Shown here in pieces: positions 5,803 through 46,341 of a DNA stretch of 46,847 nt. The notes beneath the pieces were generated by a model. That model searched no databases. It was not told where the DNA came from and saw only the letters and a program-made list of their open reading frames with translations. The stretch lies in the sequence record NC_024793.1. One strand, given 5' to 3'. The position numbers and the translations under genes are program-made. How positions within the stretch are numbered: the stretch's first letter is position 1; the number at the start of each line of letters is the position of its first letter. The DNA is from Escherichia phage vB_EcoS_AHP42.

Positions 5803-6297
5803 ATGGCATTTCGTCAAGCAGCATTAGCGGGTATGGTATCTGATACCTCTCTTTACAATATCGATGGCGCGTGCGTTCTAGGTGGCACCGATCAGGTGCA
5901 GGTTGGTCAGGCAGTTGGTGTTAGCGAAGTTGAAGTTACTGGAACTAGCTCATCTGGTGCAGGTCATAAAACTGTAGTTGGTTCTGGCATTACGACCGCT
6001 AACGTTTATGGTGTTGCTGTTCGCTCGCATTATGAAGCTGTTGATGGCTTCTATCGACCGCAAGAGGCAATTAACGTAATGACGGCTGGTAGAATCTGGA
6101 TGAAAACCACACTGTCAGCAGCGCCTGCATTCGGAACTGCAATCACTCTTGATGCGACTGGAATTGTTGTTTCTAGCGGCGCTGTTGAGCCAGCTGGTTG
6201 GACTTTCGCAGGTGGCTTCATTGCTGGCACTGCGGTGCAGGGTCAGCCAGAACCTTATGATGGCGCACTGATTGAAGTTCAGGTTAAGCAGAAATAA
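5803..6297 (+). CDS. putative head decoration or capsid-associated protein
   Basis: 164 aa, Gly/Ala/Val/Thr-rich, coupled to the scaffold gene stop and followed by a strong terminator. Confidence 0.4.
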   Translation: MAFRQAALAGMVSDTSLYNIDGACVLGGTDQVQVGQAVGVSEVEVTGTSSSGAGHKTVVGSGITTANVYGVAVRSHYEAVDGFYRPQEAINVMTAGRIWMKTTLSAAPAFGTAITLDATGIVVSSGAVEPAGWTFAGGFIAGTAVQGQPEPYDGALIEVQVKQK

Positions 6298-6336: not shown

Positions 6337-6391
6337 TTGCCAAAATTCTGTTACAATCATTAAGACTATTAACCGATATGGAGTAAATGAA

Positions 6392-9453: not shown

Positions 9454-9874
9454 TGATAACCTGCTATTTAAGCTAAAGATTAATGATTGGGCCGATTCAG
9501 TAATGGAGGCGATTCCTGAGATTATTGATGATGCCCTTGATAACGCAGCTAGGGATATCGTTAAGTTGTCTCCTGTTGATACTGGAAGGTTTAGAGGTAA
9601 CTGGCAAGCTACAGGAAACAGGCCATCACTGATTGGTTTGAACAACTATGACAAGGATGGGGCTGATACAATTAAGTCACTAAGAAGGCAAATCCACGCT
9701 CTAGCTAGAGATAAGGCTACGCATACAATCTATATCACCAATGCGCTAACGTATGCGTTACCATTGGAGTTCGGTTATTCTGGTCAGGCACCAAACGGGG
9801 TACTTGGTATCGTCACTAAGAGGCTTGGTTTTTACTTTAATGACGCTATAAGGAAAAAGTCCAATGCACTATGA
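9446..9874 (+). CDS. putative neck/tail component (HK97 gp10-like)
   Basis: 142 aa containing SPVDTGRFRGNW, reminiscent of the HK97 gp10 family. Confidence 0.5.
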   Translation: MANDNLLFKLKINDWADSVMEAIPEIIDDALDNAARDIVKLSPVDTGRFRGNWQATGNRPSLIGLNNYDKDGADTIKSLRRQIHALARDKATHTIYITNALTYALPLEFGYSGQAPNGVLGIVTKRLGFYFNDAIRKKSNAL

Positions 9875-17803: not shown

Positions 17804-20800
17804 ATGGCACAAATGGTTAAACAAACAACGAGGTTATATGATATGGCCGATTTGCCAAAGATTTATGGAAGCAAGGGTGGTAGCAAGAAGCCGCACACGC
17901 CTGTAGAGCAAGAAGATAACCTGATTTCACTTAACAAGATTAAGGTGCTACTGGCTGTAGCTGATGGCGAAGTTGATTCTAGCTTCTCACTTAAGGATGT
18001 TTACCTTGCTGACGTTCCAGTACAGAACCAGGATAACTCATTCAACTATGAAGGTGTGACAGCTGAGTTTCGCGCCGGCACTCAATCCCAAGATTACATC
18101 GCAGGACTAGATGGCGCGGCATCAGAGATTCAGGTTAGTCGTGAAATTAACAACGACACACCTTACATCATCGCAGTTAACAACAGTCAGCTATCAGCAA
18201 TCCGCGTTAAACTGTTCTGGCCTCGGCTCGTTAAGCAAGAAGAGAATGGAGATTTAAATGGAACAACATGTGAATATGCAATCGATTTATCAGTTAATGG
18301 CGCAGCGTACACGGAATATACCAGAGGCGTGGCTAACGGTAAAACTACAACAGGTTACGACCGCAGCATCAGGGTTAACCTACCAGCCGAGTTTAGCAGC
18401 GCTCTTGTTCGTATTAGGAAGTTAACGCCAGACTCAACAAGTAGCACTCTGGTTAACGGAATGCAGATTACAACCTATCAGGAAGTAATCGACGCTAAGT
18501 TCCGCTACCCTCTTACGGCACTTGTTTATGTGGAGTTCAGTTCTGACCTGTTCCCTAATGGCATCCCAACGATAGCCATTAAGAAAAAGTGGAAGCTTAT
18601 CCGTGTGCCGACAAACTACAATCCAGAGACAAGGACTTATAGCGGCACATGGGATGGCACCTTTAAGATGGCATGGTCTGACAATCCTGCCTGGGTTTTA
18701 TATGACCTGGTGGTTAGTCAGCGTTATGGTTTAGATCAGCGTGAACTTGGTGTAGAGATTGATAAGTGGGGTCTGTATGAAGCTGCGCAATTCTGTGACC
18801 AAATGGTGCCAGATGGGAAGGGTGGAATGGAGCCGCGTTACACTTGCAACGTTGTTATACAGCAGAAGGTTGAGGCGTACCAACTGATACGTGATATATG
18901 CTCTATCTTTCGCGGATTGACTTTCTATGACGGCGAGCAAATCGGGATTGTAGTGGACAGGCCACGCCAACCTAGCTACGTATTCACTAATGATAACGTT
19001 GTTAATGGATTGTTTAACAGGACATTCTCTAGTGACAAGAGCCTGTACACGACAGCAAACGTTCAGTTTGATGACGTAGAGAACAACTATCAGCAAGATG
19101 TTGAGCCAGTATTTGACCTTGAGGCAACTCGGCGATTTGGTTACAACCCGGTAGACCTTACTGCAATTGGTTGCGTAAGGCGAAGCGAGGCTAACCGCCG
19201 TGGTCGTTGGTTGCTGAAAACAAACCTTCGAAGTGAAACGGTAACATTCACAACTGGCCTTGAGGGGATGATTCCGATGATTGGTGATGTAATTGCCGTT
19301 AATGACCAGGCTTGGTCAAGCAACTACACATTAAACCTTTCGGGTCGAATTGTTGAAGCTACAGGTTTGCAGGTGTTCGTGCCATTCGCTATTGATGCTG
19401 ACCCTGGCGACAGGATTTTAATCAACAAGCCAGATGGGAGCCCAGAGTACAGGACTATAGCTTCAGTATCTGCCGATAAGTTGACGCTTGAACTGAATAC
19501 AGCATTCAGCTTCACACCTCAGCCGGATACGGTATTTGCAATCGACAAGCAGAATCTGGCGTTGCAGCAATACGTTGTGACAGGAATTCAAAAAGCAAAC
19601 ACGGACGGCGAGGATTCATTCCAGTACAGCATCACTGCGGTGCAGTATGACCCGAACAAGTATGACGAGATTGACTATGGTGTGAATATTGACGACAGGC
19701 CAACAAGTATCGTTGACCCTGACAGGATTTTACCACCTGAAAATATCACCGTTACTAGTTACAGCAAGGTAGTTCAGGGTTTAAGCGTTGAGACGATGGT
19801 TATTGGTTACGACAAGGTGCAGTATGCGAAAACATACAACGTACAATGGCGTAAGAACAATGGTAACTGGATTAACGTACCAGAGACGGCTAACACCGAG
19901 GTTGATATTGAAGGAATTTACGCTGGCATCTACGACGTAAGGGTTCGTGCCGTAACTGACCAGAAATCAGTATCTGCCTGGTCTGATATAACGACAGTTA
20001 GCCTGACCGGCAAGATTGGGGAACCTTCGGCACCGCCTGTAATTACCGCATCTGATGATGAGGTTTTCGGGATTAGGGTTAAGTGGGGTTTTCCTACTGA
20101 TTCAGCTGACACTGCGTACACTGAGCTTCAGCATGTTCCTGATAATGGTGACGGTACATACAATCCAGAGAGCGCATCGCTGCTTACACTGGTTCCGTAT
20201 CCTCAGTACGAATACTGGCACACCACTTTACCAGCAGGTAACGTGAGGTGGTACAGAGCGAGGATTATTGACAGGATAGGTAACGTATCGCCATGGACTG
20301 ATTTTGTAAGGGGCATGGCATCTGACGACGTAAGTGCAATAATTGGTGATATCAAGGTTGATATCGAAAACTCTGATGGTTACAAGTACCTACTTCAGAA
20401 CGCCATTGATGCAAACACGGATATCCAGAATCAGGCTGAGGCAATTATAGAGAACGCCCTGGCAAACGATACTGACGTTCGCGTTATGAAGCGCGAGAAT
20501 GGCGCAAGGAAGGCTGAATATCGTCAGGCTGTAAGTTTGATTGCTGATGAAACTCAGGCACGTGTGGACGCTCTCACGCAGCTTAAAGCGCAGATTGATG
20601 ATGAGATTGTTGGTCAGATTACGACAATTGAAACCGCGCTTGCTACGGAGACCGAAGCCAGGGCTACAGCTGATACTCAATTAAGCGCAAGGCTTGGTGA
20701 TAACGAGGCGGCTTTGAATCAGAAGCTTGACTCTTACGCTACGGTTGAAGGGGTTGGTGTTCAGTACGGCGTTAAGCTTGGCCTGAAGTACAATGGAGTT

Positions 20801-21229
20801 GAGTACGGCGCTGGAATGAGCATGGAGTTAACTGGTAGTGGTGGAAATGTTTGTAGTCAGTTTATTTTTGATGCTAACAGGTTCGCAATCAGTAACGGCA
20901 TTAGTTCTGGTTCCGGTCAGTGGTCGTTACCTTTCGTTGTCGAGAATAACCAAGTATTCATCCAAAGCGCGGTGATTCAGGACGGTTCAATCACTAACGC
21001 GAAGATTGGAAACCGCATTCAATCAAACAACTATGTTCAGGGTAGTCAAGGTTGGGCTATTGATAAGGCAGGGAGCGCAGAACTAAACAACGCGACAGTA
21101 AGGGGGAGCTTGTACGCAAGTAACGGTAACTTCGCCTTTAACGGAACCAACAATACTGTCGTTATAAACAACAACGGAATCACGGTTAACTTGCCAAATG
21201 GAGGTAGGGTAGTGGTTGGAGTATGGTAA
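17804..21229 (+). CDS. central tail fiber / host specificity protein (lambda J-like)
   Basis: 1141 aa, last gene of the tail operon, followed by a bidirectional terminator. Confidence 0.85.
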   Translation: MAQMVKQTTRLYDMADLPKIYGSKGGSKKPHTPVEQEDNLISLNKIKVLLAVADGEVDSSFSLKDVYLADVPVQNQDNSFNYEGVTAEFRAGTQSQDYIAGLDGAASEIQVSREINNDTPYIIAVNNSQLSAIRVKLFWPRLVKQEENGDLNGTTCEYAIDLSVNGAAYTEYTRGVANGKTTTGYDRSIRVNLPAEFSSALVRIRKLTPDSTSSTLVNGMQITTYQEVIDAKFRYPLTALVYVEFSSDLFPNGIPTIAIKKKWKLIRVPTNYNPETRTYSGTWDGTFKMAWSDNPAWVLYDLVVSQRYGLDQRELGVEIDKWGLYEAAQFCDQMVPDGKGGMEPRYTCNVVIQQKVEAYQLIRDICSIFRGLTFYDGEQIGIVVDRPRQPSYVFTNDNVVNGLFNRTFSSDKSLYTTANVQFDDVENNYQQDVEPVFDLEATRRFGYNPVDLTAIGCVRRSEANRRGRWLLKTNLRSETVTFTTGLEGMIPMIGDVIAVNDQAWSSNYTLNLSGRIVEATGLQVFVPFAIDADPGDRILINKPDGSPEYRTIASVSADKLTLELNTAFSFTPQPDTVFAIDKQNLALQQYVVTGIQKANTDGEDSFQYSITAVQYDPNKYDEIDYGVNIDDRPTSIVDPDRILPPENITVTSYSKVVQGLSVETMVIGYDKVQYAKTYNVQWRKNNGNWINVPETANTEVDIEGIYAGIYDVRVRAVTDQKSVSAWSDITTVSLTGKIGEPSAPPVITASDDEVFGIRVKWGFPTDSADTAYTELQHVPDNGDGTYNPESASLLTLVPYPQYEYWHTTLPAGNVRWYRARIIDRIGNVSPWTDFVRGMASDDVSAIIGDIKVDIENSDGYKYLLQNAIDANTDIQNQAEAIIENALANDTDVRVMKRENGARKAEYRQAVSLIADETQARVDALTQLKAQIDDEIVGQITTIETALATETEARATADTQLSARLGDNEAALNQKLDSYATVEGVGVQYGVKLGLKYNGVEYGAGMSMELTGSGGNVCSQFIFDANRFAISNGISSGSGQWSLPFVVENNQVFIQSAVIQDGSITNAKIGNRIQSNNYVQGSQGWAIDKAGSAELNNATVRGSLYASNGNFAFNGTNNTVVINNNGITVNLPNGGRVVVGVW

Positions 21230-21260: not shown

Positions 21261-22223
21261 TTAGTAGAAGCTAGGAATAAATGGGAGTGCCATTGATATG
21301 TTTGTATCAAATGGGAATTGTGCGCCAGTTTGAGTTGAATAGTTACCTATAACAGTACCAGGAACAGCTCTAACTGAACCGCCAGACATGCAAATACCCT
21401 TGTATCGTAAGTTATTATATCCACCAGTGACTCTAGTTGTCGCTCCACATCTAAGTATTGGGAAGAACCCACCATTCACTGACTGGTAACCATTATTAAT
21501 CTGCATAAATCCACTTAGAACAAATGGCCTCCTGACGCTAGAGAAAACTATCTGCCCAGCGCTGTTTGATATCGTTAAACCCGGACCAGCTACTGGAGGT
21601 GTATTATTGAAAATAACTAACTGAACGTAAGTACTTGCAGCAACATCATCAATCCCATTGTATGTTATATCCCTACACCATATCGTACTACCATCACTTT
21701 CAAGGGATACGTTTGGGTTATCCCATTTACCAAAAGGAATGCCGCCAACTGGCAATGATGCAGAGCCATTAACCTGGATGCCACCAACCCAAGCAGCAGT
21801 CATTAATCTGGAATTGCTTGATATCGCTGTAAAGTCAGTCGAGTTCTCAACAAGGACACCGGGGCTTGATTGTGATGATGCTGGTAAAATCTCAAAGCAC
21901 TGACCGCCAAACTGCAATATGCGACCATTAGCGCCGTTAAAGTTACTTAATGTAATCCTTCCAACCCCATCATTAACCTTCGAGAACCCATTCATGTAAT
22001 AAACTTCTGGTATAACATCATATGCATCAACATAAACAGCCTGAGTTGGCAGGCAGAATGCTGTTGAGCCAGGAGTCATAGTCAGACCGAAATCCCATGA
22101 TGATGCTGGTGAGCTTAACCCGCTAGTGTTTATTGAACCAGTCACGGCTGGAACTCTCAAGCCAGCTGTGATTTCCATTGCTGGCCTTCCGTCATTCAAA
22201 TCTATCAAGATACCTTGAGGCAT
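21261..22223 (-). CDS. hypothetical Ser/Gly/Asn-rich protein (possible receptor-binding or exclusion partner)
   Basis: 320 aa from the ATG at 22223 (AAGGAG RBS); overlaps the upstream lipoprotein stop by 1 nt (TAATG); convergent with the J-like gene. Confidence 0.45.
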   Translation of the reverse strand: MPQGILIDLNDGRPAMEITAGLRVPAVTGSINTSGLSSPASSWDFGLTMTPGSTAFCLPTQAVYVDAYDVIPEVYYMNGFSKVNDGVGRITLSNFNGANGRILQFGGQCFEILPASSQSSPGVLVENSTDFTAISSNSRLMTAAWVGGIQVNGSASLPVGGIPFGKWDNPNVSLESDGSTIWCRDITYNGIDDVAASTYVQLVIFNNTPPVAGPGLTISNSAGQIVFSSVRRPFVLSGFMQINNGYQSVNGGFFPILRCGATTRVTGGYNNLRYKGICMSGGSVRAVPGTVIGNYSTQTGAQFPFDTNISMALPFIPSFY

Positions 22224-22468
22224 TATTTCCACTCCTTTGAGCCGTGATCTGCAACTGAGCCGCCGTAGCCTCCGCCAACCTTTGACTCAATGCCAGCATA
22301 ACGAATATCAACCTCTCCAGCTGCAACAATAACACCACCTTTCCACTTAGCTACGCAAACATCACCCGCCTGAGTCGCACACCATCCGTCAGGGCGCGGA
22401 CCAGAAGAACAACCTACCGTCATGATTACTGCTGCTGCGATGATTGCTGATTTGATGAAGTTAGTCAT
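22223..22468 (-). CDS. small lipoprotein, Cor-like superinfection exclusion candidate
   Basis: 81 aa with lipoprotein signal [22 protein letters not shown]; first gene of a minus-strand unit driven by a palindrome-associated promoter; next to tail-tip genes as cor is in T1/phi80-like phages. Confidence 0.5.
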
Positions 22469-22508
22469 TTTGTATTCCTTAGTAAGTATGTTTCGTTTCG
22501 ATGGAGTA

Positions 22509-22553
22509 ACTATAGCAAAGGCTTCTGCTGGAGTCTTTAGCAAATCGTGCTAT
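22509..22553 (-). promoter_or_regulatory. dyad-associated promoter (minus strand) for the Cor-like operon
   Basis: Minus strand: TAGCAC-gat-TTGCTA, 22 nt, TGcTATAGT, then TCCATCGAAACGAAAC leader. Confidence 0.55.
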
Positions 22554-24116: not shown

Positions 24117-25085
24117 ATGAGCTTCAAGGTTTACACTAGCGACGAGTTAACCAACGAAGCCTACCACAAGGAGTCAGACCATGTGTCTGGCTCTGGTCTG
24201 GCTCACATCTTCTCAACTTGCCCCGCTGCTTATAAGTTTGCAGAGCATGATGATAGCAATAAGGCGTTAAAGTTCGGTACATTAGCCCACACGGTTATTC
24301 TTGAAAACTATGTATTCGATGCGACTTACTATCGCCAGCCAGCGCAAGAAGAGTTTGAGGATCTGATTACTAGCAAGACTGCTTTGGCAACTCGGTTGAA
24401 GTCGATGGGTATTGCTGGAACATCTGGTAAGGATTATCCAGAATTAATGGAGATTCTGGCGCTGAGCGGTGAATCACTTAACGTATGGTGGGATATTCAG
24501 CGCTCTAGCGAGGTTAAAGCGAACGGTCGCGAGATTGTATCAGCTAAAGACTTTGACACAGTACATGCGATGCGAGAGGTGCTGTGCGGCATTCCTGCAT
24601 ACAATGCGATAGTGAACAGTAAAACCGCTCAGCGAGAGTTATCAATCTTCGGTGAGATTAACGAGTGCGGCGTTAAGGTTCGTCTTGACCATGTCGATGT
24701 CGTTGATGATGTAGTTTATATCCGTGACTACAAGACGACTAGCGACGCATCTCCATCTGGATTTGGGAGATTGGCCTTCAAGCATGGTTACTTGCTAAAA
24801 ATGGCGCTTCAGCATGATTTGTTTGTTCGCGCCTTTAATGAGAAGCGTCGAGTTGTTGTTCAGCTTCTTTGCCAGGAAAAGAAAAGCCCATTCCTTCCAA
24901 TGTGCTACACGATAACAAAAGAGCACTTAAAGGTTGGTAGATTGCAATACATGAGCGCCCTATCCACATACAAGCAATGCAAGAAACTTGATATTTGGCC
25001 TGGTTACGGATTTGGCGAAACAGAGATGGAACTGCAAGTTCCTGAGTATGAGATGAAGAAGTACGAAGATAGCACGAATAGCTAA
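24117..25085 (+). CDS. putative PD-(D/E)XK recombination exonuclease
   Basis: 322 aa with a D...D-x-K-like core (DHVDVVDDVVYIRDYKTT); immediately upstream of the Erf-like and SSB genes. Confidence 0.55.
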   Translation: MSFKVYTSDELTNEAYHKESDHVSGSGLAHIFSTCPAAYKFAEHDDSNKALKFGTLAHTVILENYVFDATYYRQPAQEEFEDLITSKTALATRLKSMGIAGTSGKDYPELMEILALSGESLNVWWDIQRSSEVKANGREIVSAKDFDTVHAMREVLCGIPAYNAIVNSKTAQRELSIFGEINECGVKVRLDHVDVVDDVVYIRDYKTTSDASPSGFGRLAFKHGYLLKMALQHDLFVRAFNEKRRVVVQLLCQEKKSPFLPMCYTITKEHLKVGRLQYMSALSTYKQCKKLDIWPGYGFGETEMELQVPEYEMKKYEDSTNS

Positions 25086-25112
25086 AACGGTATTAAATCG
25101 ATGGGGTATAGT
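25070..25112 (+). promoter_or_regulatory. dyad-associated promoter upstream of the Erf-like gene
   Basis: TAGCAC-gaa-TAGCTA overlapping the exonuclease stop, 22 nt, TATAGT at 25107..25112, then CTCATCGACAACAAAGAGAG. Confidence 0.55.
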
Positions 25113-25141
25113 TACCTCATCGACAACAAAGAGAGATAGAA

Positions 25142-25836: not shown

Positions 25837-26259
25837 ATGCATACTTTAACAGGCGTAATTCGTAAGGCTCCTTTCACTAAAGATGGTCAGAACGCCAAGG
25901 GTAACTGGAAGATGTACGCTATCGAAATGAGCGAATCTTATAAAACACGAGATGGAGAGCGTAAGTATAGTAATTATCGAGCTACCTTCTTTGCTAGCGA
26001 GGCGCAAATTAGCTGGTATGACGAAGCATTTCAGGAAGGAAAAGTTATCTCTGTGAGCGGCGATTCATTAGCGGTTAATGAGCGCGAACATAATGGCAAG
26101 ACATATATTACGCTTGAGTTGCAGAATCCTCGATTGATGTTTAGTCAGCGAGGAGGTGAATCAGAACAGCAGCAGCAGCGACAACAAGCTCAACAGCAAC
26201 AGAGACAGCAGCCGCAGCAACAAAGCCGATTTAGTGATGAAGATGATATTCCGTTTTAA
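25837..26259 (+). CDS. ssb: single-stranded DNA-binding protein
   Basis: 140 aa with OB-fold-like N-terminus, Gln-rich linker and the canonical acidic tail DEDDIPF. Confidence 0.85.
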   Translation: MHTLTGVIRKAPFTKDGQNAKGNWKMYAIEMSESYKTRDGERKYSNYRATFFASEAQISWYDEAFQEGKVISVSGDSLAVNEREHNGKTYITLELQNPRLMFSQRGGESEQQQQRQQAQQQQRQQPQQQSRFSDEDDIPF

Positions 26260-26267
26260 TGCAAAAG

Positions 26268-26293
26268 ATAAAGCCCCTTTCGGGGCTTTTTTA
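26268..26293. terminator. bidirectional terminator between SSB and the tailspike gene
   Basis: AAGCCCC-TTTCG-GGGCTTTTTT with an A-run on the other side. Confidence 0.75.
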
Positions 26294-29008
26294 TTGTGAC
26301 GTTACATCACCATTCAAACTCAAAAATACTGATTGTTTTGTCAAATCAACACCACCTTTAAGCGAATAGTATCTTGAAGCGCAATAATCAGACTCATCTG
26401 AATAGCTGCCAACGTAAACACCAAAGCCATATCCAGAGCAAGCTACATCACCAGCGCCTTGACCTGAATACATGGTTACATAGTTACCAGCTGTTGTTAG
26501 TATAGGCCTGACATCAATATCTATATACTGAGAATCAAATGACCTTCTAACTCTAAATCCAGTATTCAGGTTTAAGATGCTCCACCAAACCTTACCAGAT
26601 ACATCAAAACCAAGAGCAATATTGTAAGTACCACCGTTGACCATTCTTGATGAGACTGGCAACACACCTGATAAAACTCTTGTTTCACCTGATGCTGATA
26701 TTAACAATGAGACACTGTGTTCTCCTGATGCCATCACGTTATACTGCAAGTAAAGAGCATTACTATTAACTCCAAAACCAGTCCCTATAGCCATAAGGTT
26801 AAAGTCTTCAGCAACAGTTATGGTCGGCGATATATTGCATGTAGCGGTGAAACCTAGTGACGGGTCAAATCCAGTGCATATAATCTTATCTTTATTTGCC
26901 TGTGAAAGCCTTAGCCAATATTGCTGCCCAACTGATGATGCCGCTGCGGCGAATACTGGTGTATTAGAGACCCCATCAAAAGCTGAAGTGTCGTTTGCTG
27001 GCTTAATTCTTGTCTTCCTTTTGTCTATAAGTCCGTTTATCTTCAGGTTTCCTGAATACTCAGCAACATAGTTAGTGTCCCCTGAGAAATTTGGGCCAAA
27101 GTAACCAGATTCAACAACCCCATCGATCACAACATCAGATCTTGAGTCAAGGAATCTGAAGTTGCCAGCGGAAGTTGGCCTTCCATCGCCATTGTTAGAT
27201 ACATAGTTAAGCCCAACAAAACCATAGATTCTTACAGAGCTATTTGAAAACGAAACGTTATAATCTCTGTAGTTTGAGTTTATGCTGTTCCTGTTACTAT
27301 TTAATCCATTAAATACCACATTTCTAGAGTTTACAATTCTAACACCGTCACCACCGCAATCCTGCGCCTCTATAGCTGACATGGTGATGTTTTGGCAGTT
27401 ATCAATCAGGATGCCATAAGCATCATCAAGCTCATTATAAGCCGACCAACCCGACCAAATAAACTTACCGCCAACAATCCTACAGTTTCCGGCATTCCTA
27501 AGTATTAGACAATTTCTTCCACAGGTGTTTACCTGTATGTTATTCCATGTGAAGTCTGTTGTTTCGTTAATCAATCCGTCTTTTTTTATGTGCTGAATAA
27601 GAACATCATCAAGAACAGGAGAGTAGTTACCAGCAGCAACGAAAATTCCGTAAACATCAAACCCAGCAATGTGAGTGTTTCTTATCGTTAAGTCCCTTCT
27701 AGGGTCAGCACCAGTGTTGAATGGGTAATTGGTTGATAACCCAGTCGGAGTAGGGATGTAAATCCCAGCAGTACCATCAGTAAACGCCGTGTCTTGCTGG
27801 GCTCCAGTGCCGTAAAGAGCAATACCTTCAATATGAATGAGCGAGCAAGAATCAGAAACCTCAATTAAAGAGCCAATTGATGAACTAAGCTGAGTTATTC
27901 TTGACTTGTGCTTGCCAAAACCAATTATAGAGCAAGATTTATTTCTCATTACCAGGTTTGATGCCATGTAGTCGCTATCAAGCTTTAATGCCAGCCCGGA
28001 GTCTAGGATTTGCTGTATCTGTTTCGTTGAGTCTGATGTCGATGACTTAATGGCCCCAAGTTCGCAAGGCGACAGCTCCCCGCTACAGATTCTTTCCCAG
28101 TAATAACCGGTACTTGATTCAAAAACCAATCCTGAAGATAATCCATATGATAAAGATGACTCCGGCTTACAAACAAAGAACCCACCACCATAACCAAGAC
28201 CACCAATGTAAGAATCACAATAGACAACCTCTAAGTCATAAATTCTGGCAGAGTTTGTCATTGCTGATACTGATTCAAACCTTCTTGTGTAATCCTGTTG
28301 AATCCAAAAACCAACTCCAATACCACCTGTAGACTGTGGTGATGAGTTTTGTGGTATGGATTTTGGAACGCTACCAGACCAGTAATAAACCGAAACATGA
28401 TTGTCATTAAAGTAAATTGCAGGCTGAGTTCTTGAGTTTATTTCTCCACCATTTGAGAAATCAACTACAAGAGCAGATGACACAGAAGCCGCAGCAGAGC
28501 TTGCTATTGTAGCTGAAGAGGAAGCCGAGTTAGCGCTACTTTCAGCTAACTGCCTATCAGAAGATACCTGATCTTTGTCAGAAGAAACTTGAGCAGCATC
28601 AACAGCAACTTGCTGAGATTGCATGTTGACATTATTTACGCTTTGCTGGAAAGAATCAGAATCAAATTGATTAAAAGCATCAACTGCCGCTGCAACCTCT
28701 GTTTCACGGGACTGATAATAACGAAGTGTCTCAGCAACGTCCTGAGCAAGACCTTGGACAGTAATTCCGTCATGAGCAAGGATTGAGTACTGAGTCCCAG
28801 CTGGCGCAGTAAAACCTTTATCATTGAATACACGAATCTCTGTATCGCTTAAAATCTCAGCGATAGTAACAATGCTTGTCGGGGTGGTGTTAAAAATCAT
28901 TGTTGCGCCAACTCGGATTAGTGTTAGTGGTTGCCTCCACGTGGTGCCAACACCAGTTACAGTTCCGTCAGCTGCAAGCGATGCAGTTCCAGCGTCATAA
29001 ATTGCCAT
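26291..29008 (-). CDS. tail fiber / tailspike with beta-helix (putative depolymerase) domain
   Basis: 905 aa: tail-fiber-like N-terminus, Ser/Ala/Gln-rich linker, central parallel beta-helix-like repeats (NTHIAGFDVYGIFVAAGN...ILRNAGNCRIVGG...RIVNSRNVVFNG), C-terminal domain; AGGAGA RBS. Confidence 0.7.
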   Translation of the reverse strand: MAIYDAGTASLAADGTVTGVGTTWRQPLTLIRVGATMIFNTTPTSIVTIAEILSDTEIRVFNDKGFTAPAGTQYSILAHDGITVQGLAQDVAETLRYYQSRETEVAAAVDAFNQFDSDSFQQSVNNVNMQSQQVAVDAAQVSSDKDQVSSDRQLAESSANSASSSATIASSAAASVSSALVVDFSNGGEINSRTQPAIYFNDNHVSVYYWSGSVPKSIPQNSSPQSTGGIGVGFWIQQDYTRRFESVSAMTNSARIYDLEVVYCDSYIGGLGYGGGFFVCKPESSLSYGLSSGLVFESSTGYYWERICSGELSPCELGAIKSSTSDSTKQIQQILDSGLALKLDSDYMASNLVMRNKSCSIIGFGKHKSRITQLSSSIGSLIEVSDSCSLIHIEGIALYGTGAQQDTAFTDGTAGIYIPTPTGLSTNYPFNTGADPRRDLTIRNTHIAGFDVYGIFVAAGNYSPVLDDVLIQHIKKDGLINETTDFTWNNIQVNTCGRNCLILRNAGNCRIVGGKFIWSGWSAYNELDDAYGILIDNCQNITMSAIEAQDCGGDGVRIVNSRNVVFNGLNSNRNSINSNYRDYNVSFSNSSVRIYGFVGLNYVSNNGDGRPTSAGNFRFLDSRSDVVIDGVVESGYFGPNFSGDTNYVAEYSGNLKINGLIDKRKTRIKPANDTSAFDGVSNTPVFAAAASSVGQQYWLRLSQANKDKIICTGFDPSLGFTATCNISPTITVAEDFNLMAIGTGFGVNSNALYLQYNVMASGEHSVSLLISASGETRVLSGVLPVSSRMVNGGTYNIALGFDVSGKVWWSILNLNTGFRVRRSFDSQYIDIDVRPILTTAGNYVTMYSGQGAGDVACSGYGFGVYVGSYSDESDYCASRYYSLKGGVDLTKQSVFLSLNGDVTSQ

Positions 29009-29060
29009 GTTATTTCTCCTATTTGATAGATGAAACCTATTGTATCAGATTAAATGCAAT

Positions 29061-29081
29061 AAAAAACCCTCCGAAGAGGGT
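29061..29081 (-). terminator. rho-independent terminator (minus strand) after the primase gene
   Basis: Minus strand reads ACCCTC-TTCG-GAGGGTTTTTT. Confidence 0.7.
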
Positions 29082-29086
29082 GATTG

Positions 29087-30010
29087 CTATGAATGCTTAT
29101 CTATCAGATCTTGCGGGTTATATAACCTTCTTTCAAGCCCCATCTTGAAATTGCCACCTTTAGGTATTACGACTTTTAGACCTCTATCATCAGCAACATA
29201 AAGCGACTCCTTTTCATCAGCTAAGCAAGCTATCCTGCACTCTTTATTCCTGAGTTCATAAGCAACCATTTCTAAGTTGTGGTGAGTTAGGCAGTCGTAA
29301 GTTGTCCTTTTTGTGCATGCCGATACATGTAGTGCGTTAATCCAGCCAACAGTGAGGTAGATAGCTCCATCACTACATTTACTTACCGGAACAACCGAGC
29401 CGCGAGTGTAGTCTTTTGCGAGATATGACTCATTACCCTCTTCATCTATAAACTTTACGTTACAAGGCTCATCTGATAAACCATCCTCGTAAACCATAAA
29501 GCATTGCTCGGCTATAATTTCTTCTCCAGACCCCTTTATTCCTATTTTGTATTCCCGTTCAGTAATAATTGCTTCAAATCTCGTAAGCTGTGTCATTTCT
29601 ACAGACTTGGTGCGAGATATTACCTTCTCGATTGATTCAATGGATGCCTGAGCGCCAAAGTTATATCTCTGAACTCGGCTCGCTGCTTTGTTTGCCTTCA
29701 CTATGATTTCGACGGGAGTCAAATTAAGCCAGTCGCCAAGTAAATTTATAGCTTCCGCAAATCTAAGGCCGGAACATTTCATAACCCATCCTATTCCTGA
29801 GTCACTGCCGCACTTAGAGCAAACTGCGGCCCCATTACCTTTTTCGCTTCCTATTTCGTCTGTAAACCTGAATCTGTCAGTACCAAAGCAATAAGGGCAC
29901 GGCCCGTGCTTCTTGCTAAGGTGTCTATCATTCCAACCAAGCTCCTTTGCATAAAATGATTTCCACAATCCAGCCATTTTAGGTATTACTTCATTCTTGT
30001 CGTAATTCAT
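29087..30010 (-). CDS. putative DNA primase (zinc ribbon + TOPRIM-like)
   Basis: Zinc ribbon CPYCFG...CSKCG near the N-terminus and an acidic TOPRIM-like region; followed by a minus-strand terminator. Confidence 0.5.
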   Translation of the reverse strand: MNYDKNEVIPKMAGLWKSFYAKELGWNDRHLSKKHGPCPYCFGTDRFRFTDEIGSEKGNGAAVCSKCGSDSGIGWVMKCSGLRFAEAINLLGDWLNLTPVEIIVKANKAASRVQRYNFGAQASIESIEKVISRTKSVEMTQLTRFEAIITEREYKIGIKGSGEEIIAEQCFMVYEDGLSDEPCNVKFIDEEGNESYLAKDYTRGSVVPVSKCSDGAIYLTVGWINALHVSACTKRTTYDCLTHHNLEMVAYELRNKECRIACLADEKESLYVADDRGLKVVIPKGGNFKMGLERRLYNPQDLIDKHS

Positions 30011-30062
30011 TTTTATTTAATCCAATAAAAAGGTTGTACCGATTATGGCACAACCTTAATTT

Positions 30063-38348: not shown

Positions 38349-39938
38349 TTACCCCAACAGCCGTGGATTGATATATACCTTGTCACCAATCAGGCAGGTA
38401 TAGTTTTTATCATCAAGCATCGGCAATAAGTGGTCTTTAATTTTAGCCATAACACCAGCCTGTGACTCGAAAGGTCGAACCTTACGCGCAGCTTCATAAA
38501 GTGAACGCAAACCCACAACTCCTTTACTGTTCTTGCCTTGCTTGATAAGGATATCAATTAACTTGTTCATCTCAGCGTTATCGCCAGCATGACCAGCTGC
38601 GTTAGCTGAGGATAAGTAAGTCTTACTAAGTTCTCCAAACATCAACAAAGCCTCTTGCATGGTTTCCAGTTCAATCTCCCTGGACTTCTGCGGACTACCG
38701 CCATTTGGGTTAAACCAGTTACGGATAGTGTGAAGAACTGCAGCAATGCGAATTACCTGTTTATCCATTTTACCTAACGCGCCGCGCAGCATTGTGTGTG
38801 AATACTTACCGCCATCTGCAAGGTGTGGCTCCATTTCCTGTCGAGCACGGTTAAGGTGCTTCATTGCTGAGTTACTAATAGTCAACTTAACATCTTGCTC
38901 ACTCATAATTTCATGAACAAGACGGAAGTAATCAGCCTTCAACGCTCCGTCAATCGGCTCATATGTTGACTCGCCATTATCATCGACGAAAACACGCTCA
39001 CCAAGGAATGACTTTTCACGCACAAGCAAGAAACGTTCGGATACACCAATACCGCGAGCACCAGCATTCATGATTGCGACTATTGTTTCATCCTGCGCAA
39101 TTACAGAAATACACCCCATAGCAATAAAGCTCATGTTGTTCTCTGCGTTCGCACGCGCGATAGATACGTTACCAGCATCCCAGGCCTTAAGCACCAGTTC
39201 GCTGTTTGTTTTCTTTGTTCCATCACCATAGGTCATGCCCAGCAGTGAGTTGACGCTCGTCGCCTCATCCGAGATGACAGCGAAGCTACCCTGACGATGG
39301 TTAATGCGTGCCAGACCTTCGGGAGTAGTATCAGATACAGGGAATACGATGTCGCAAAGTTTCTCGAGCTTATCTTCCAGCTCCTCCTTCTCCTCAAACA
39401 AACCAGCCATCTCAGAAGGCGACTTCTCCTGCTTCATTTCTTTAGCCAGAGCCGACAGCTTGGCCATAATCTTTTTACGGTCACGCTTACGGAGCTCGTT
39501 TAGTCGCTCAGTCTCTGCAATCATTGGAGCCAGAGACAGCGAGTTAATGGCAGATTTACCAGTTGATGGAGGCTGGCTGGTCACTACATACAGTGATGTT
39601 GGTTGTTGAGTTCCGTGATACTCAACCGTAAAGCGACCTAACATAGCTGCCGAGATGCAACCAAGGAAGTGCATATAAGCAGATGATTCAGGAAACTGAA
39701 CAGAACGAGCAATGTTGCTTGATAGTTTGCCAACTACATCATAGTCGTTACCAAGCGAGATAACAGGATACTTGTCGCCAGTAGAATCAATCTCAACCGG
39801 AGCTTTCCAGAATGATGCGCTCTGGCGATAACCGTTCGCATTAATAGCAACACGTAAAGGAGGTAATCCATCCTGAGCGGCAACAGCCATTACTTGTTCA
39901 ACAGTCAATTTGTCATCATTAAAATCAAACATTATCAT
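38349..39938 (-). CDS. large conserved hypothetical protein (possible replication-associated; full-length paralog of 43251..43811)
   Basis: 529 aa; its N-terminal about 40 aa and C-terminal about 55 aa are paralogous to the 186-aa protein at 43251..43811. Confidence 0.55.
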   Translation of the reverse strand: MIMFDFNDDKLTVEQVMAVAAQDGLPPLRVAINANGYRQSASFWKAPVEIDSTGDKYPVISLGNDYDVVGKLSSNIARSVQFPESSAYMHFLGCISAAMLGRFTVEYHGTQQPTSLYVVTSQPPSTGKSAINSLSLAPMIAETERLNELRKRDRKKIMAKLSALAKEMKQEKSPSEMAGLFEEKEELEDKLEKLCDIVFPVSDTTPEGLARINHRQGSFAVISDEATSVNSLLGMTYGDGTKKTNSELVLKAWDAGNVSIARANAENNMSFIAMGCISVIAQDETIVAIMNAGARGIGVSERFLLVREKSFLGERVFVDDNGESTYEPIDGALKADYFRLVHEIMSEQDVKLTISNSAMKHLNRARQEMEPHLADGGKYSHTMLRGALGKMDKQVIRIAAVLHTIRNWFNPNGGSPQKSREIELETMQEALLMFGELSKTYLSSANAAGHAGDNAEMNKLIDILIKQGKNSKGVVGLRSLYEAARKVRPFESQAGVMAKIKDHLLPMLDDKNYTCLIGDKVYINPRLLG

Positions 39939-42072: not shown

Positions 42073-42345
42073 TCGTCAGATTTATGGATTGTTGCAGGCA
42101 TTGCGATGATTAGCATGACTATTACACATAAAGCAATATTTCATCGAGTGCAACAGGTTTATTGATTGTTGCCAGTTTGGCAATGATGGATGGATGGATT
42201 GAATGAAAGGAGGTCTGGATCAAATAGTTGGTTGGTTTTATCGCTCGCGGAGAGACTTCTTTTATATACGCGTAGTCCGCTGTCTACCGATTGTCGACCG
42301 TATCCACATTTACAATTTATACGCCTTGATATAATCCATATACAC

Positions 42346-44383: not shown

Positions 44384-44621
44384 CAATCTACGAACACACA
44401 TTCAGCAGCAGGGGTATCGATATGCTCCTGCATTACGTAGACGAACAATACGCCATGTTGATGCAGAGGACGCACGGCGGCACTATAACGAGGATTGAGA
44501 TATGTACTACTATATGATTCCTATTGAAGATTTAATGCTTGATTACAGTCATGGCTACATTGCGGTATGCGACGCTGATACAATGACTGCATATGTTGAC
44601 TTTGAATTTGAGGATTGAGAT

Positions 44622-46265: not shown

Positions 46266-46341
46266 GTTCTGCTGGCGTAACAGGATAACGCAGAGACCTC
46301 CTAAGTCTCAGTTGCTGGTTCGAGTCCAGCGCAGAACGCCA
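46266..46341 (+). tRNA. tRNA-Arg (anticodon CCT, reads AGG)
   Basis: Hand-folded 76-nt cloverleaf: 7-bp acceptor stem GTTCTGC/GCAGAAC, U8, D-stem GCGT/ACGC with GG in the D-loop, anticodon stem GAGAC/GTCTC, loop CTCCTAA, T-stem GCTGG/CCAGC, T-loop TTCGAGT, discriminator G and encoded CCA. Confidence 0.85.

Follow-up and report, generated by a model that had tools for sequence, protein, structure and literature searches.

The minus-strand gene at 26291..29008 (905 codons plus stop, ATG start) of the window, that is, the whole 46,847-nucleotide stretch of Escherichia phage vB_EcoS_AHP42 (NC_024793.1) that was analysed, encodes the lateral 'tail fiber protein II', or side tailspike, of Rogunavirus phages. 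Rogunavirus is a genus of O157-specific, T1-like siphophages of the Drexlerviridae. The protein is very probably an anchored homotrimer in which a beta-helix and a beta-sandwich bind and cut the O157 O-antigen, expressed from its own transcription unit and carrying a swappable specificity part; what was observed is the homology, the fold, the conserved residues, the synteny and the boundaries of recombination, and from these we infer the trimeric state, the enzymatic activity, the promoter function and the location in the virion. The open reading frame was present as an earlier note, made from the letters alone, had described it. A profile search with PHROG 4818 ('tail fiber protein', 1486 bits) covered the full length of the protein, three residues set it apart from the tail fiber protein annotated in Escherichia phage C119, and at the DNA level the gene was 98.0-99.8% identical to its counterpart in 19 Rogunavirus records, the genomes of which themselves differ by 2-5%. 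In the record of phage JK06, five deletions were found within a 62-nt stretch of the gene, and these are probably sequencing errors. The earlier finding thus holds but is an ordinary one, its essentials already being in databases and papers.

The protein was resolved into six segments by homologue matches and an AlphaFold monomer model (pLDDT 80-95 over most of residues ~250-600 and 680-870). Residues 1-148 (28565..29008, minus strand, as are all segments and codons below) make up the Drexlerviridae tail-anchor module, which also takes in the N-terminal half of the neck helix; this agrees with the tail-fibre-like N-terminus claimed earlier. By tblastn, residues 1-118 were matched in 838 phage records, mostly from T1-like phages of 44-52 kb, and in about 30 homologues with other C-termini the alignment (77-92% identity) ended at residues 145-152. 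Such a conserved N-terminal module followed by a variable remainder, as known of Drexlerviridae fibres, is typical of an attachment domain. The PDB depolymerases 7VYV and 7LZJ matched residues 1-173 (E = 2e-37); residues 1-89 of the model had a pLDDT of ~30. Residues 117-177 (28478..28660) were assigned by DSSP to a long alpha-helix (pLDDT 60-80), presumed to be a trimeric coiled-coil neck. The Ser/Ala/Gln-rich composition noted earlier was evident here (30% S, 19% A and 12% Q in residues 117-180), but the segment is predicted to be a long helical neck, not a flexible linker. Residues 182-237 (28298..28465) form a small 'head' domain matching Pfam Tail_spike_N (PF18668, TSP1/Gp66 N-terminal domain; E = 2.8e-13, 50.2 bits, above the cutoff of 25), and a second cluster of homologue breakpoints, after that at ~148, lay at residues 235-237.

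Between neck and beta-helix, residues 240-330 (28019..28291; pLDDT about 75-86) correspond, by alignment start and model, to domain D3' of the CBA120 tailspike TSP2. The catalytic domain, a right-handed parallel beta-helix, was assigned to residues 331-660 (27029..28018) from the TSP2 alignment, the model and Foldseek, with pLDDT mostly 84-95 up to residue ~600 and about 40-65 in residues 600-660. The repeated short strands that had suggested a beta-helix in this region were recovered as stacked strands from about residue 340 to 631 of the model, and Pfam Beta_helix matched residues 438-591 with 21.4 bits, under its cutoff of 25.9. The C-terminal beta-sandwich, residues 661-905 (26294..27028; pLDDT about 80-94 for residues 680-870), corresponds to D4 of TSP2 by alignment and model.

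The likeness to CBA120 TSP2 (ORF211) carried the functional assignment. Residues 242-895 aligned to PDB 5W6P and 6W4Q (E = 5.5e-175, starting at residue 241-242), with a BLASTP identity of 45.7% over 654 residues. The structure prediction that the earlier note had proposed as a check gave a right-handed beta-helix followed by a beta-sandwich, for which 5W6P was the top Foldseek match (target TM 0.84-0.85, rmsd 4.3 A, ~660 columns); the remaining matches were all beta-helix tailspikes or depolymerases. By domain, 20/88 residues were identical in D3' (the least conserved of the common module), 168/330 in the beta-helix and 109/240 in D4. The proposed TSP2 active site consists of D506, E568, D571, R594 and Y623, and the double mutation D506A:D571A abolishes activity (PMC7506556). 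In the alignment these residues corresponded to D485 (27554-27556), E547 (27368-27370), D550 (27359-27361), R573 (27290-27292) and Y602 (27203-27205), with the codons verified over the span 27203..27556, and all five were invariant in 14 of 14 aligned family members. The chloride-binding N565 of TSP2 was replaced by S544. Residues 1-148 were identical to the TSP2 N-terminus at only 17 of 127 positions in a forced alignment, and no docking region of the Ackermannviridae type was found there; since the N-terminus is instead a Drexlerviridae anchor, membership of the TSP2 type, seen in the homology over D3', beta-helix and D4, the fold and the active-site residues, covers the catalytic module and not the whole protein. 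Because identity is about 46%, fine specificity could differ from that of TSP2. The earlier label of a pectate-lyase-fold depolymerase was right in so far as the protein is a right-handed beta-helix tailspike. Membership of the pectate lyases was rejected, the nearest solved relative, CBA120 TSP2, being a glycoside hydrolase; as no pectate-lyase Pfam family matched at E <= 1, we prefer a glycoside hydrolase by homology.

Comparison with the subfamily relative Opt-79 showed DNA similarity ending at nucleotide 413 of the gene (codon 138) and resuming exactly at the stop codon, which indicates a clean module swap; read from the DNA, the exchanged specificity part is codons ~139-905. The domain swapping expected among relatives in the C-terminal two-thirds was indeed seen, with breakpoint clusters at ~148 and ~236, beyond which the enzyme domains are of many kinds. 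A search with the C-terminal module placed the catalytic family among the narrow ones (11 clusters among 5.8 billion proteins, in a thin alignment). The same module occurred in O157 phages of three morphotypes (Rogunavirus, Kuttervirus and phiV10), and phage members with a recorded host came mostly from O157 isolates; the record of phiKP26, which has the tailspike gene, names a Salmonella Oranienburg strain. Citrobacter sedlakii may have an O157-like O-antigen, given serological cross-reaction. A homologue in a prophage of that species (P0008) was considered as a sign of such an antigen and dropped, the paper on this point concerning a different TSP2 and lending it no support.

The gene is flanked, as had been proposed, by an SSB-like gene (25837..26259, plus strand, ending in a typical DDIPF tail) and a primase gene with a Zn-ribbon primase domain (29087..30010, minus strand), and the GpJ-like gene (17804..21229, plus strand) ends 5062 nt from the tailspike stop, in line with the ~5 kb given for a J-like gene on the opposite strand. 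The order helicase, regulator-primase-fibre, SSB-Erf-RecE was kept in six genera and one metagenomic contig. The gene lay at the SSB/recombination junction in the same order in Rogunavirus, Tunavirus, Nouzillyvirus, Veterinaerplatzvirus, Tlsvirus, Opt-79 and the contig (L006), and the fibre gene was placed differently in Webervirus and Sauletekiovirus. In the BASEL collection, the Drexlerviridae lateral fibre locus is described between recombination and primase/helicase genes, with only the far 5' end conserved and the remainder hypervariable (PMC8594841), and the AHP42 gene sits at this junction, after primase, as is usual for the family. The location 'inside the replication module' therefore stands, but it is not peculiar to AHP42, being the conserved lateral fibre position in most Drexlerviridae (PMC8594841, S1C Fig legend). 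An AHP42-specific insertion was rejected because synteny holds family-wide; the gene is the O157 allele of the Drexlerviridae lateral fibre locus.

Terminators on both sides of the gene, also claimed earlier, were located. Upstream, 3' of the primase stop, a terminator-like hairpin of six pairs with a T-run lies at 29060..29081 on the minus strand (ACCCTCTTCGGAGGGT at 29081..29066, tail TTTTTTATT), and counterparts were found in 9/9 lineages compared. Downstream, a bidirectional terminator hairpin (AAAGCCCC-TTTC-GGGGCTTT, 26270..26289) was found on both strands; it is common to the convergent tailspike and SSB genes and is also the 3' limit of the exchangeable segment. Both hairpins carry terminator annotation in phage AHP24, the downstream one on both strands. 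A scan against Rfam matched only a tRNA, with no RNA element at the tailspike locus. Cross-genus motif comparison pointed to a candidate extended -10 promoter, TGATACAAT, at 29039..29047 (minus strand), 39 nt before the ATG; this or a near-identical motif was at the same place in 8/9 lineages, and in the ninth TTGCAT-N17-CATAAT was read by eye instead. TGATAYAAT occurred six times in the window against 1.43 expected, and a general sigma-70 scan listed no promoter before the gene. A Shine-Dalgarno sequence, AGGAG (29016..29020, minus strand), precedes the ATG by 7 nt. The arrangement of a terminator, a promoter-like element, the gene and a bidirectional terminator was seen in 9/9 lineages, two of them with different neighbours. 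Of the self-contained host-range cassette suggested by the earlier note, the gene's own flanking terminators and the exchangeable module were retained, but what is swapped is codons ~139-905 and not the gene in its entirety. That the fibre gene moves through the Drexlerviridae as an autonomous expression cassette (insulating terminator, own extended -10 TGATACAAT, gene, bidirectional terminator), its form kept where neighbours change, we advance tentatively, judging it slightly less probable than the contrary; if true, it would account for how a structural gene comes to be expressed within the replication region and would provide a ready site for engineering host range.

Under the most probable reading, the tailspike would be a homotrimer fixed, by homology, to the tail tip by its first ~148 residues, with the long helical neck and then the small head domain distal to the anchor. 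Residues ~240-905 would bind the O157 O-antigen and hydrolyse it by acid/base chemistry in a predicted cleft between neighbouring subunits, where D485 and D550 would act, with E547, R573 and Y602 nearby. Having cut through the O-antigen layer, the phage would reach the outer membrane, and its terminal receptor would then be engaged by the GpJ tip and the products of a small receptor-binding locus after gpJ. The gene would be its own transcription unit, bounded by the upstream terminator, the promoter-like element and the bidirectional terminator, and codons ~139-905 would pass between phages through recombination, with crossovers in the conserved 5' end on one side and in the conserved terminator/SSB flank on the other.

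Replacement of the C-terminal part of CBA120 TSP2 led to loss of spotting on O157 (PMC9965104), and phage BECP10, with a gene 99.3% identical to that of AHP42, was unable to plate on wzy or rfaJ mutants (PMC8402813). The haloed plaques that phage UDF157lw forms on O157 (PMC10838988) also favour this reading. In the literature searched, no enzymatic or binding test of an AHP42-type siphophage tailspike protein was found, and a search for the Rogunavirus tailspike on O157 gave no match; the Rogunavirus literature has yet to link the gene to TSP2. A tailspike-shaped adhesin that drifted from TSP2, and that binds the O157 O-antigen without cutting it or acts on another glycan, is an improbable alternative. 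Towards it point the identity of about 46%, the weak conservation of D3', the N565 to S544 replacement, the Salmonella host of phiKP26, and phage UDF157lw, the halo activity of which did not strictly track O157 status, no halo being seen on O157 strain ATCC 43888 (PMC10838988). The five active-site residues are nevertheless invariant across a very narrow family, the recorded hosts of its phage members are mostly O157 isolates, and BECP10 requires the O-antigen polymerase, all of which speak against this alternative.

More improbable still is a depolymerase residing in another virion protein, the major tail protein, with the gene analysed here being a dispensable accessory fibre. The halo of UDF157lw was credited by its authors to the major tail protein (PMC10838988), the tailspike gene in that phage's record is split by a 1-nt deletion at codon 547 while halos are still reported, and mass spectrometry of virions of AHP24 and relatives listed seven proteins without the tailspike (PMC4070988). 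However, a test of the isolated major tail protein is not presented in the passages of PMC10838988 covered here, the missing base may be a sequencing artefact, as those in JK06 probably are, and among the part of the window's open reading frames that was scanned the tailspike alone combined the fold of a beta-helix glycosidase with a conserved active site; the gene is also kept at the high identity given above in the 19 records while the genomes diverge. The assignment of depolymerase activity to a different protein in that paper is probably wrong. The absence from the virion list of PMC4070988, together with the position among early and middle genes, could also speak for an enzyme that is soluble and set free at lysis, and not part of the virion. 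This we consider highly improbable, given the N-terminal module conserved in 838 phage records before a varying remainder (compare PMC8594841), the homologous N-termini that head solved depolymerases of Klebsiella T1-like phages, and the star-like fibres at the tail end of UDF157lw virions described in PMC10838988.

For discovery, the assignment of the gene as an O157 lateral tailspike carries little weight, as the hypervariable T1-like fibre locus has been described and a close relative of the enzyme module has had its structure and active site solved. Its value is practical: O157-specific phages of the Rogunavirus group are used in biocontrol, and identifying the protein as an O157 O-antigen hydrolase, together with target residues for mutagenesis and the exact limits of the swap (codon ~139 to stop), is useful for diagnostics and host-range engineering, besides correcting a likely mis-assigned depolymerase activity in one paper.

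Compared with known systems, the AHP42 gene showed no essential difference from the Drexlerviridae lateral tail fibre/tailspike locus of the BASEL collection, occupying the same place with the same conserved 5' end. CBA120 TSP2 (5W6P, 5W6S, 6W4Q), the O157:H7 tailspike glycosidase of a Kuttervirus (Ackermannviridae), is homologous over residues ~240-905 and shares the active-site residues and the host serogroup, but its unrelated N-terminus of ~168 residues docks into a branched four-spike complex of a myovirus, whereas AHP42 has the Drexlerviridae anchor and long helical neck. The tailspike PhiV10p25 of phiV10, a temperate O157-specific Uetakevirus podophage, is 39% identical over 637 residues of the catalytic and C-terminal module and keeps the active-site residues; it differs in an epsilon15-type N-terminus, and its gene adjoins an O-acetyltransferase that modifies the O157 antigen. 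In P0004, a P22-type prophage tailspike, the same catalytic module (48% identity) stands behind a P22 head-binding domain, and the P22 tailspike itself follows the same logic of a beta-helix O-antigen hydrolase as a remote fold relative (E = 7.7e-6, TM ~0.2). DpK2 (7LZJ) and Depo32 (7VYV, 7VZ3), K2 capsule depolymerases of Klebsiella T1-like phages, have a homologous anchor and neck and the same plan of anchor, neck, connector and beta-helix, but their beta-helix shows no sequence relationship to that of AHP42 (10-11% identity when aligned by fold) and targets capsule, whereas the AHP42 one is predicted to target O-antigen.

The tailspike gene of the window, an ATG-initiated ORF of 905 codons (26291..29008, minus strand), lies between a primase gene encoding a zinc-ribbon domain (29087..30010, minus strand) and a convergent gene for an SSB-like protein ending in DDIPF (25837..26259, plus strand), and its stop codon is 5,062 nt from the end of the GpJ-type tail tip gene (17804..21229, plus strand). 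A G+C-rich hairpin with a T-run stands 3' of the primase stop codon (29081..29066, minus strand), and between the tailspike and SSB genes there is a hairpin of perfect symmetry that has a T-run on each side (26270..26289); the annotation of phage AHP24 lists the two hairpins as rho-independent terminators. Every element of the arrangement described in the earlier note (ORF, neighbours, GpJ gene about 5 kb away, flanking terminators) was present. Database entries for the gene use the names tail fiber, tail fiber protein II and tail spike protein. Its product matches PHROG 4818 ('tail fiber protein') over the full length (1486 bits) and differs at three residues (K329T, Q492K and M739I) from the representative of the C119 'tail fiber protein' cluster.

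Coverage by homologues divided the tailspike into three modules. In about 30 proteins the similarity is limited to residues 1-145/152 (77-92% identity), and in about 45 further ones it covers residues 1-235/237 (55-75% identity); beyond these breakpoints the homologues carry unrelated domains, among others pectate-lyase-3, peptidase S74, GDSL lipase, sialidase and phosphodiesterase. Residues ~240-905 were also found behind quite different N-termini. A search with residues 1-118 gave matches in 838 phage records, almost all from phages 44-52 kb in size of Escherichia, Klebsiella, Shigella, Salmonella, Citrobacter and relatives, and capsule depolymerases of known structure from Klebsiella T1-like phages match residues 1-173 (E = 2e-37). 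Pfam assigned residues 182-237 to Tail_spike_N (TSP1/Gp66 N-terminal) above threshold, and residues 438-591 to the generic Beta_helix just below threshold.

An AlphaFold2 model made from 22 sequences had a mean pLDDT of 73, with values of 80-95 across most of residues ~250-600 and 680-870 and no confident model for residues 1-89. Residues 117-177 were modelled as a single long helix, so that the stretch previously described as a Ser/Ala/Gln-rich linker, the composition of which was confirmed (30% Ser, 19% Ala and 12% Gln over residues 117-180), more likely forms a coiled-coil neck. Beyond it the model continues with a small domain of beta structure, a stack of short strands (~340-631) and a C-terminal beta-sandwich. 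Its best structural matches were entries of TSP2, the ORF211 tailspike glycosidase of the E. coli O157:H7 phage CBA120 (target-normalised TM 0.84-0.85, rmsd 4.3 A, ~660 columns), followed exclusively by other beta-helix tailspikes and depolymerases. The predicted structure agrees with the beta-helix part of the proposed pectate-lyase-fold depolymerase; the nearest solved relative is a hydrolase and not a lyase.

Residues 242-895 match TSP2 (PDB 5W6P/5W6S and 6W4Q) with E = 5.5e-175 and a BLASTP identity of 45.7%. The active site of TSP2 lies in a cleft between trimer subunits, with D506 and D571 as acid/base pair, E568 and Y623 as back-up pair and R594 beside Y623, and TSP2 carrying D506A:D571A has no activity (PMC7506556). 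None of the five residues varies among the 14 aligned family members, the tailspike equivalents being D485, E547, D550, R573 and Y602; the chloride-binding N565 of TSP2 is replaced by S544. For the tailspike itself we infer trimerisation, activity and location in the virion. Mass spectrometry of AHP24-type virions reported seven proteins, the tailspike not among them.

The TSP2-type module is rare: a search of 5.8 billion proteins yielded 11 clusters (90% identity). Within the phage collection three settings were found for it, namely Rogunavirus siphophages, Kuttervirus myophages at ~48% identity to the tailspike, CBA120 orf211 among them, and the O157-specific podophage phiV10 (39.5%). The module also follows a P22-type head-binding domain in prophages of E. 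coli (P0004) and occurs in other contexts. Exchange of the C-terminal part of CBA120 TSP2 abolished spotting on O157 (PMC9965104). BECP10, the copy of which is 99.3% identical to the tailspike gene, does not plate on transposon mutants of wzy and rfaJ, and its authors suggested the tail spike protein as responsible (PMC8402813). UDF157lw is reported to form haloed plaques on O157 strains, and the authors attribute the halo to the major tail protein (PMC10838988). Its record (L012:201-2917) has a 1-base deletion at gene nt 1640, in the active-site Glu codon 547 (window 27368-27370), and the tailspike is split into two annotated CDSs. A literature search for a direct assay of the siphophage tailspike found none; the TSP2 exchange, BECP10 plating and UDF157lw halos, taken together, make O157 O-antigen hydrolysis its most likely function. 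In the JK06 record (L013:201-2913) the gene is split into JK_75 and JK_76 by five deletions of one base each, all inside a stretch of 62 nt (gene nt 2198-2260); this record dates from 2005, and the deletions probably stem from sequencing errors. One record carrying the gene, phiKP26, names a Salmonella host.

Rogunavirus belongs to the Drexlerviridae, the T1-like phages. Over 25 kb (20000-44999) the window has 95-98% identity and 89-92% coverage to Rogunavirus AKS96, C119, AHP24 and AHS24, and the tailspike gene is 98.0-99.8% identical in DNA across 19 records; within the genus this host-range gene is more conserved than its surroundings. The RecE-like and Erf genes adjoin at 25086-25141 and are separated by an HNH endonuclease gene in AHP24, a likely homing endonuclease being present there and absent here. 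A tRNA-Arg (anticodon CCT; 46266-46341), detected by ARAGORN and Rfam, fits the single arginyl-tRNA reported for these phages, and a second short minus-strand block includes a 529-aa DUF3987 protein (38349-39938). Directly after gpJ, behind a terminator, minus-strand genes (21261-22543) for a 323-aa DUF6453 protein and a 106-aa phage lipoprotein correspond to the BASEL 'bona fide RBP locus', tied there to terminal receptor choice.

The suggested domain swapping was borne out by the homologue breakpoints and by comparison with Opt-79, a phage that belongs to the same subfamily and carries another spike. At 83%, DNA similarity extends from the primase end through nt 413 of the tailspike gene, is then lost, and restarts (76%) exactly at the stop codon, so that codons ~139-905 constitute the exchanged segment. 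Most of the primase gene (29236-30013) also lacks an Opt-79 DNA match, with ~82% identity on both sides, and is a second mosaic segment adjoining the tailspike.

The position inside the replication module was correctly noted but is not unusual. A gene order of helicase (opposite strand), regulator, primase and fibre, followed by convergent SSB, Erf and RecE, is kept in AHP24, Tunavirus JMPW2, Nouzillyvirus 50EP, Veterinaerplatzvirus 12210I, Tlsvirus Supreme284, Opt-79 and a metagenomic contig. The BASEL study likewise describes a fibre locus flanked by conserved recombination and primase/helicase genes, with conservation of the fibre gene limited to its far 5' end (PMC8594841); this location is therefore the family norm. 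In Webervirus Sanco and Sauletekiovirus AAS23 the neighbours are arranged otherwise, the cassette following SSB on the same strand and gpJ-associated membrane protein genes, respectively. The metagenomic contig encodes P0002, a full-length and uniformly diverged (61%) homologue, which suggests that both proteins descend from one anchor-spike fusion older than the AHS24 species.

Intergenic signals around the fibre gene were compared in nine lineages. A terminator hairpin opens the upstream region and a strong hairpin closes the cassette in all nine. An extended -10 motif, presumably acting as a promoter, lies 15-25 nt past the terminator hairpin in eight. Five of these carry TGATACAAT, and the rest have TGATAGAAT, TGATAAAAT or TGCTATTAT; in the ninth lineage TTGCAT-N17-CATAAT was identified by eye. 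Sanco and AAS23 retain their own terminator and TGNTANNAT motif despite different neighbours (SSB or a membrane protein gene upstream), which argues that these signals travel with the fibre gene. In the window, TGATAYAAT occurs six times (1.43 expected; 0 of 100 shuffles reached six), at 522-530, 9664-9672, 24534-24542 (minus), 29039-29047 (minus), 42327-42335 and 44576-44584, several sites being intergenic, and may represent the usual promoter type of the phage. Related TGTTAYAAT motifs precede structural genes, in the gaps at 6349 and 10960. Fibre 5' leaders of four other lineages (the P0002 contig, L006:~5945-5975, and the corresponding positions in L007, L008 and L004) share a conserved inverted repeat, GCACTTTAGCAATT(C/A)GTGCTA, which is absent from those of the window and Opt-79.

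With minor corrections (a hydrolase in place of a lyase, a helical neck in place of a linker, and a position shared across the family in place of an unusual one), the interpretation in the earlier note was supported. The tailspike is already known in substance: numerous genomes have the gene annotated, loci of this type are on record, and for a homologue both the structure and the active site have been worked out. The present analysis adds modestly to this by linking the Rogunavirus protein explicitly to TSP2, active-site residues included, by setting precise limits to the swapped segment, and by showing that the succession terminator, promoter-like element, gene, terminator is conserved.
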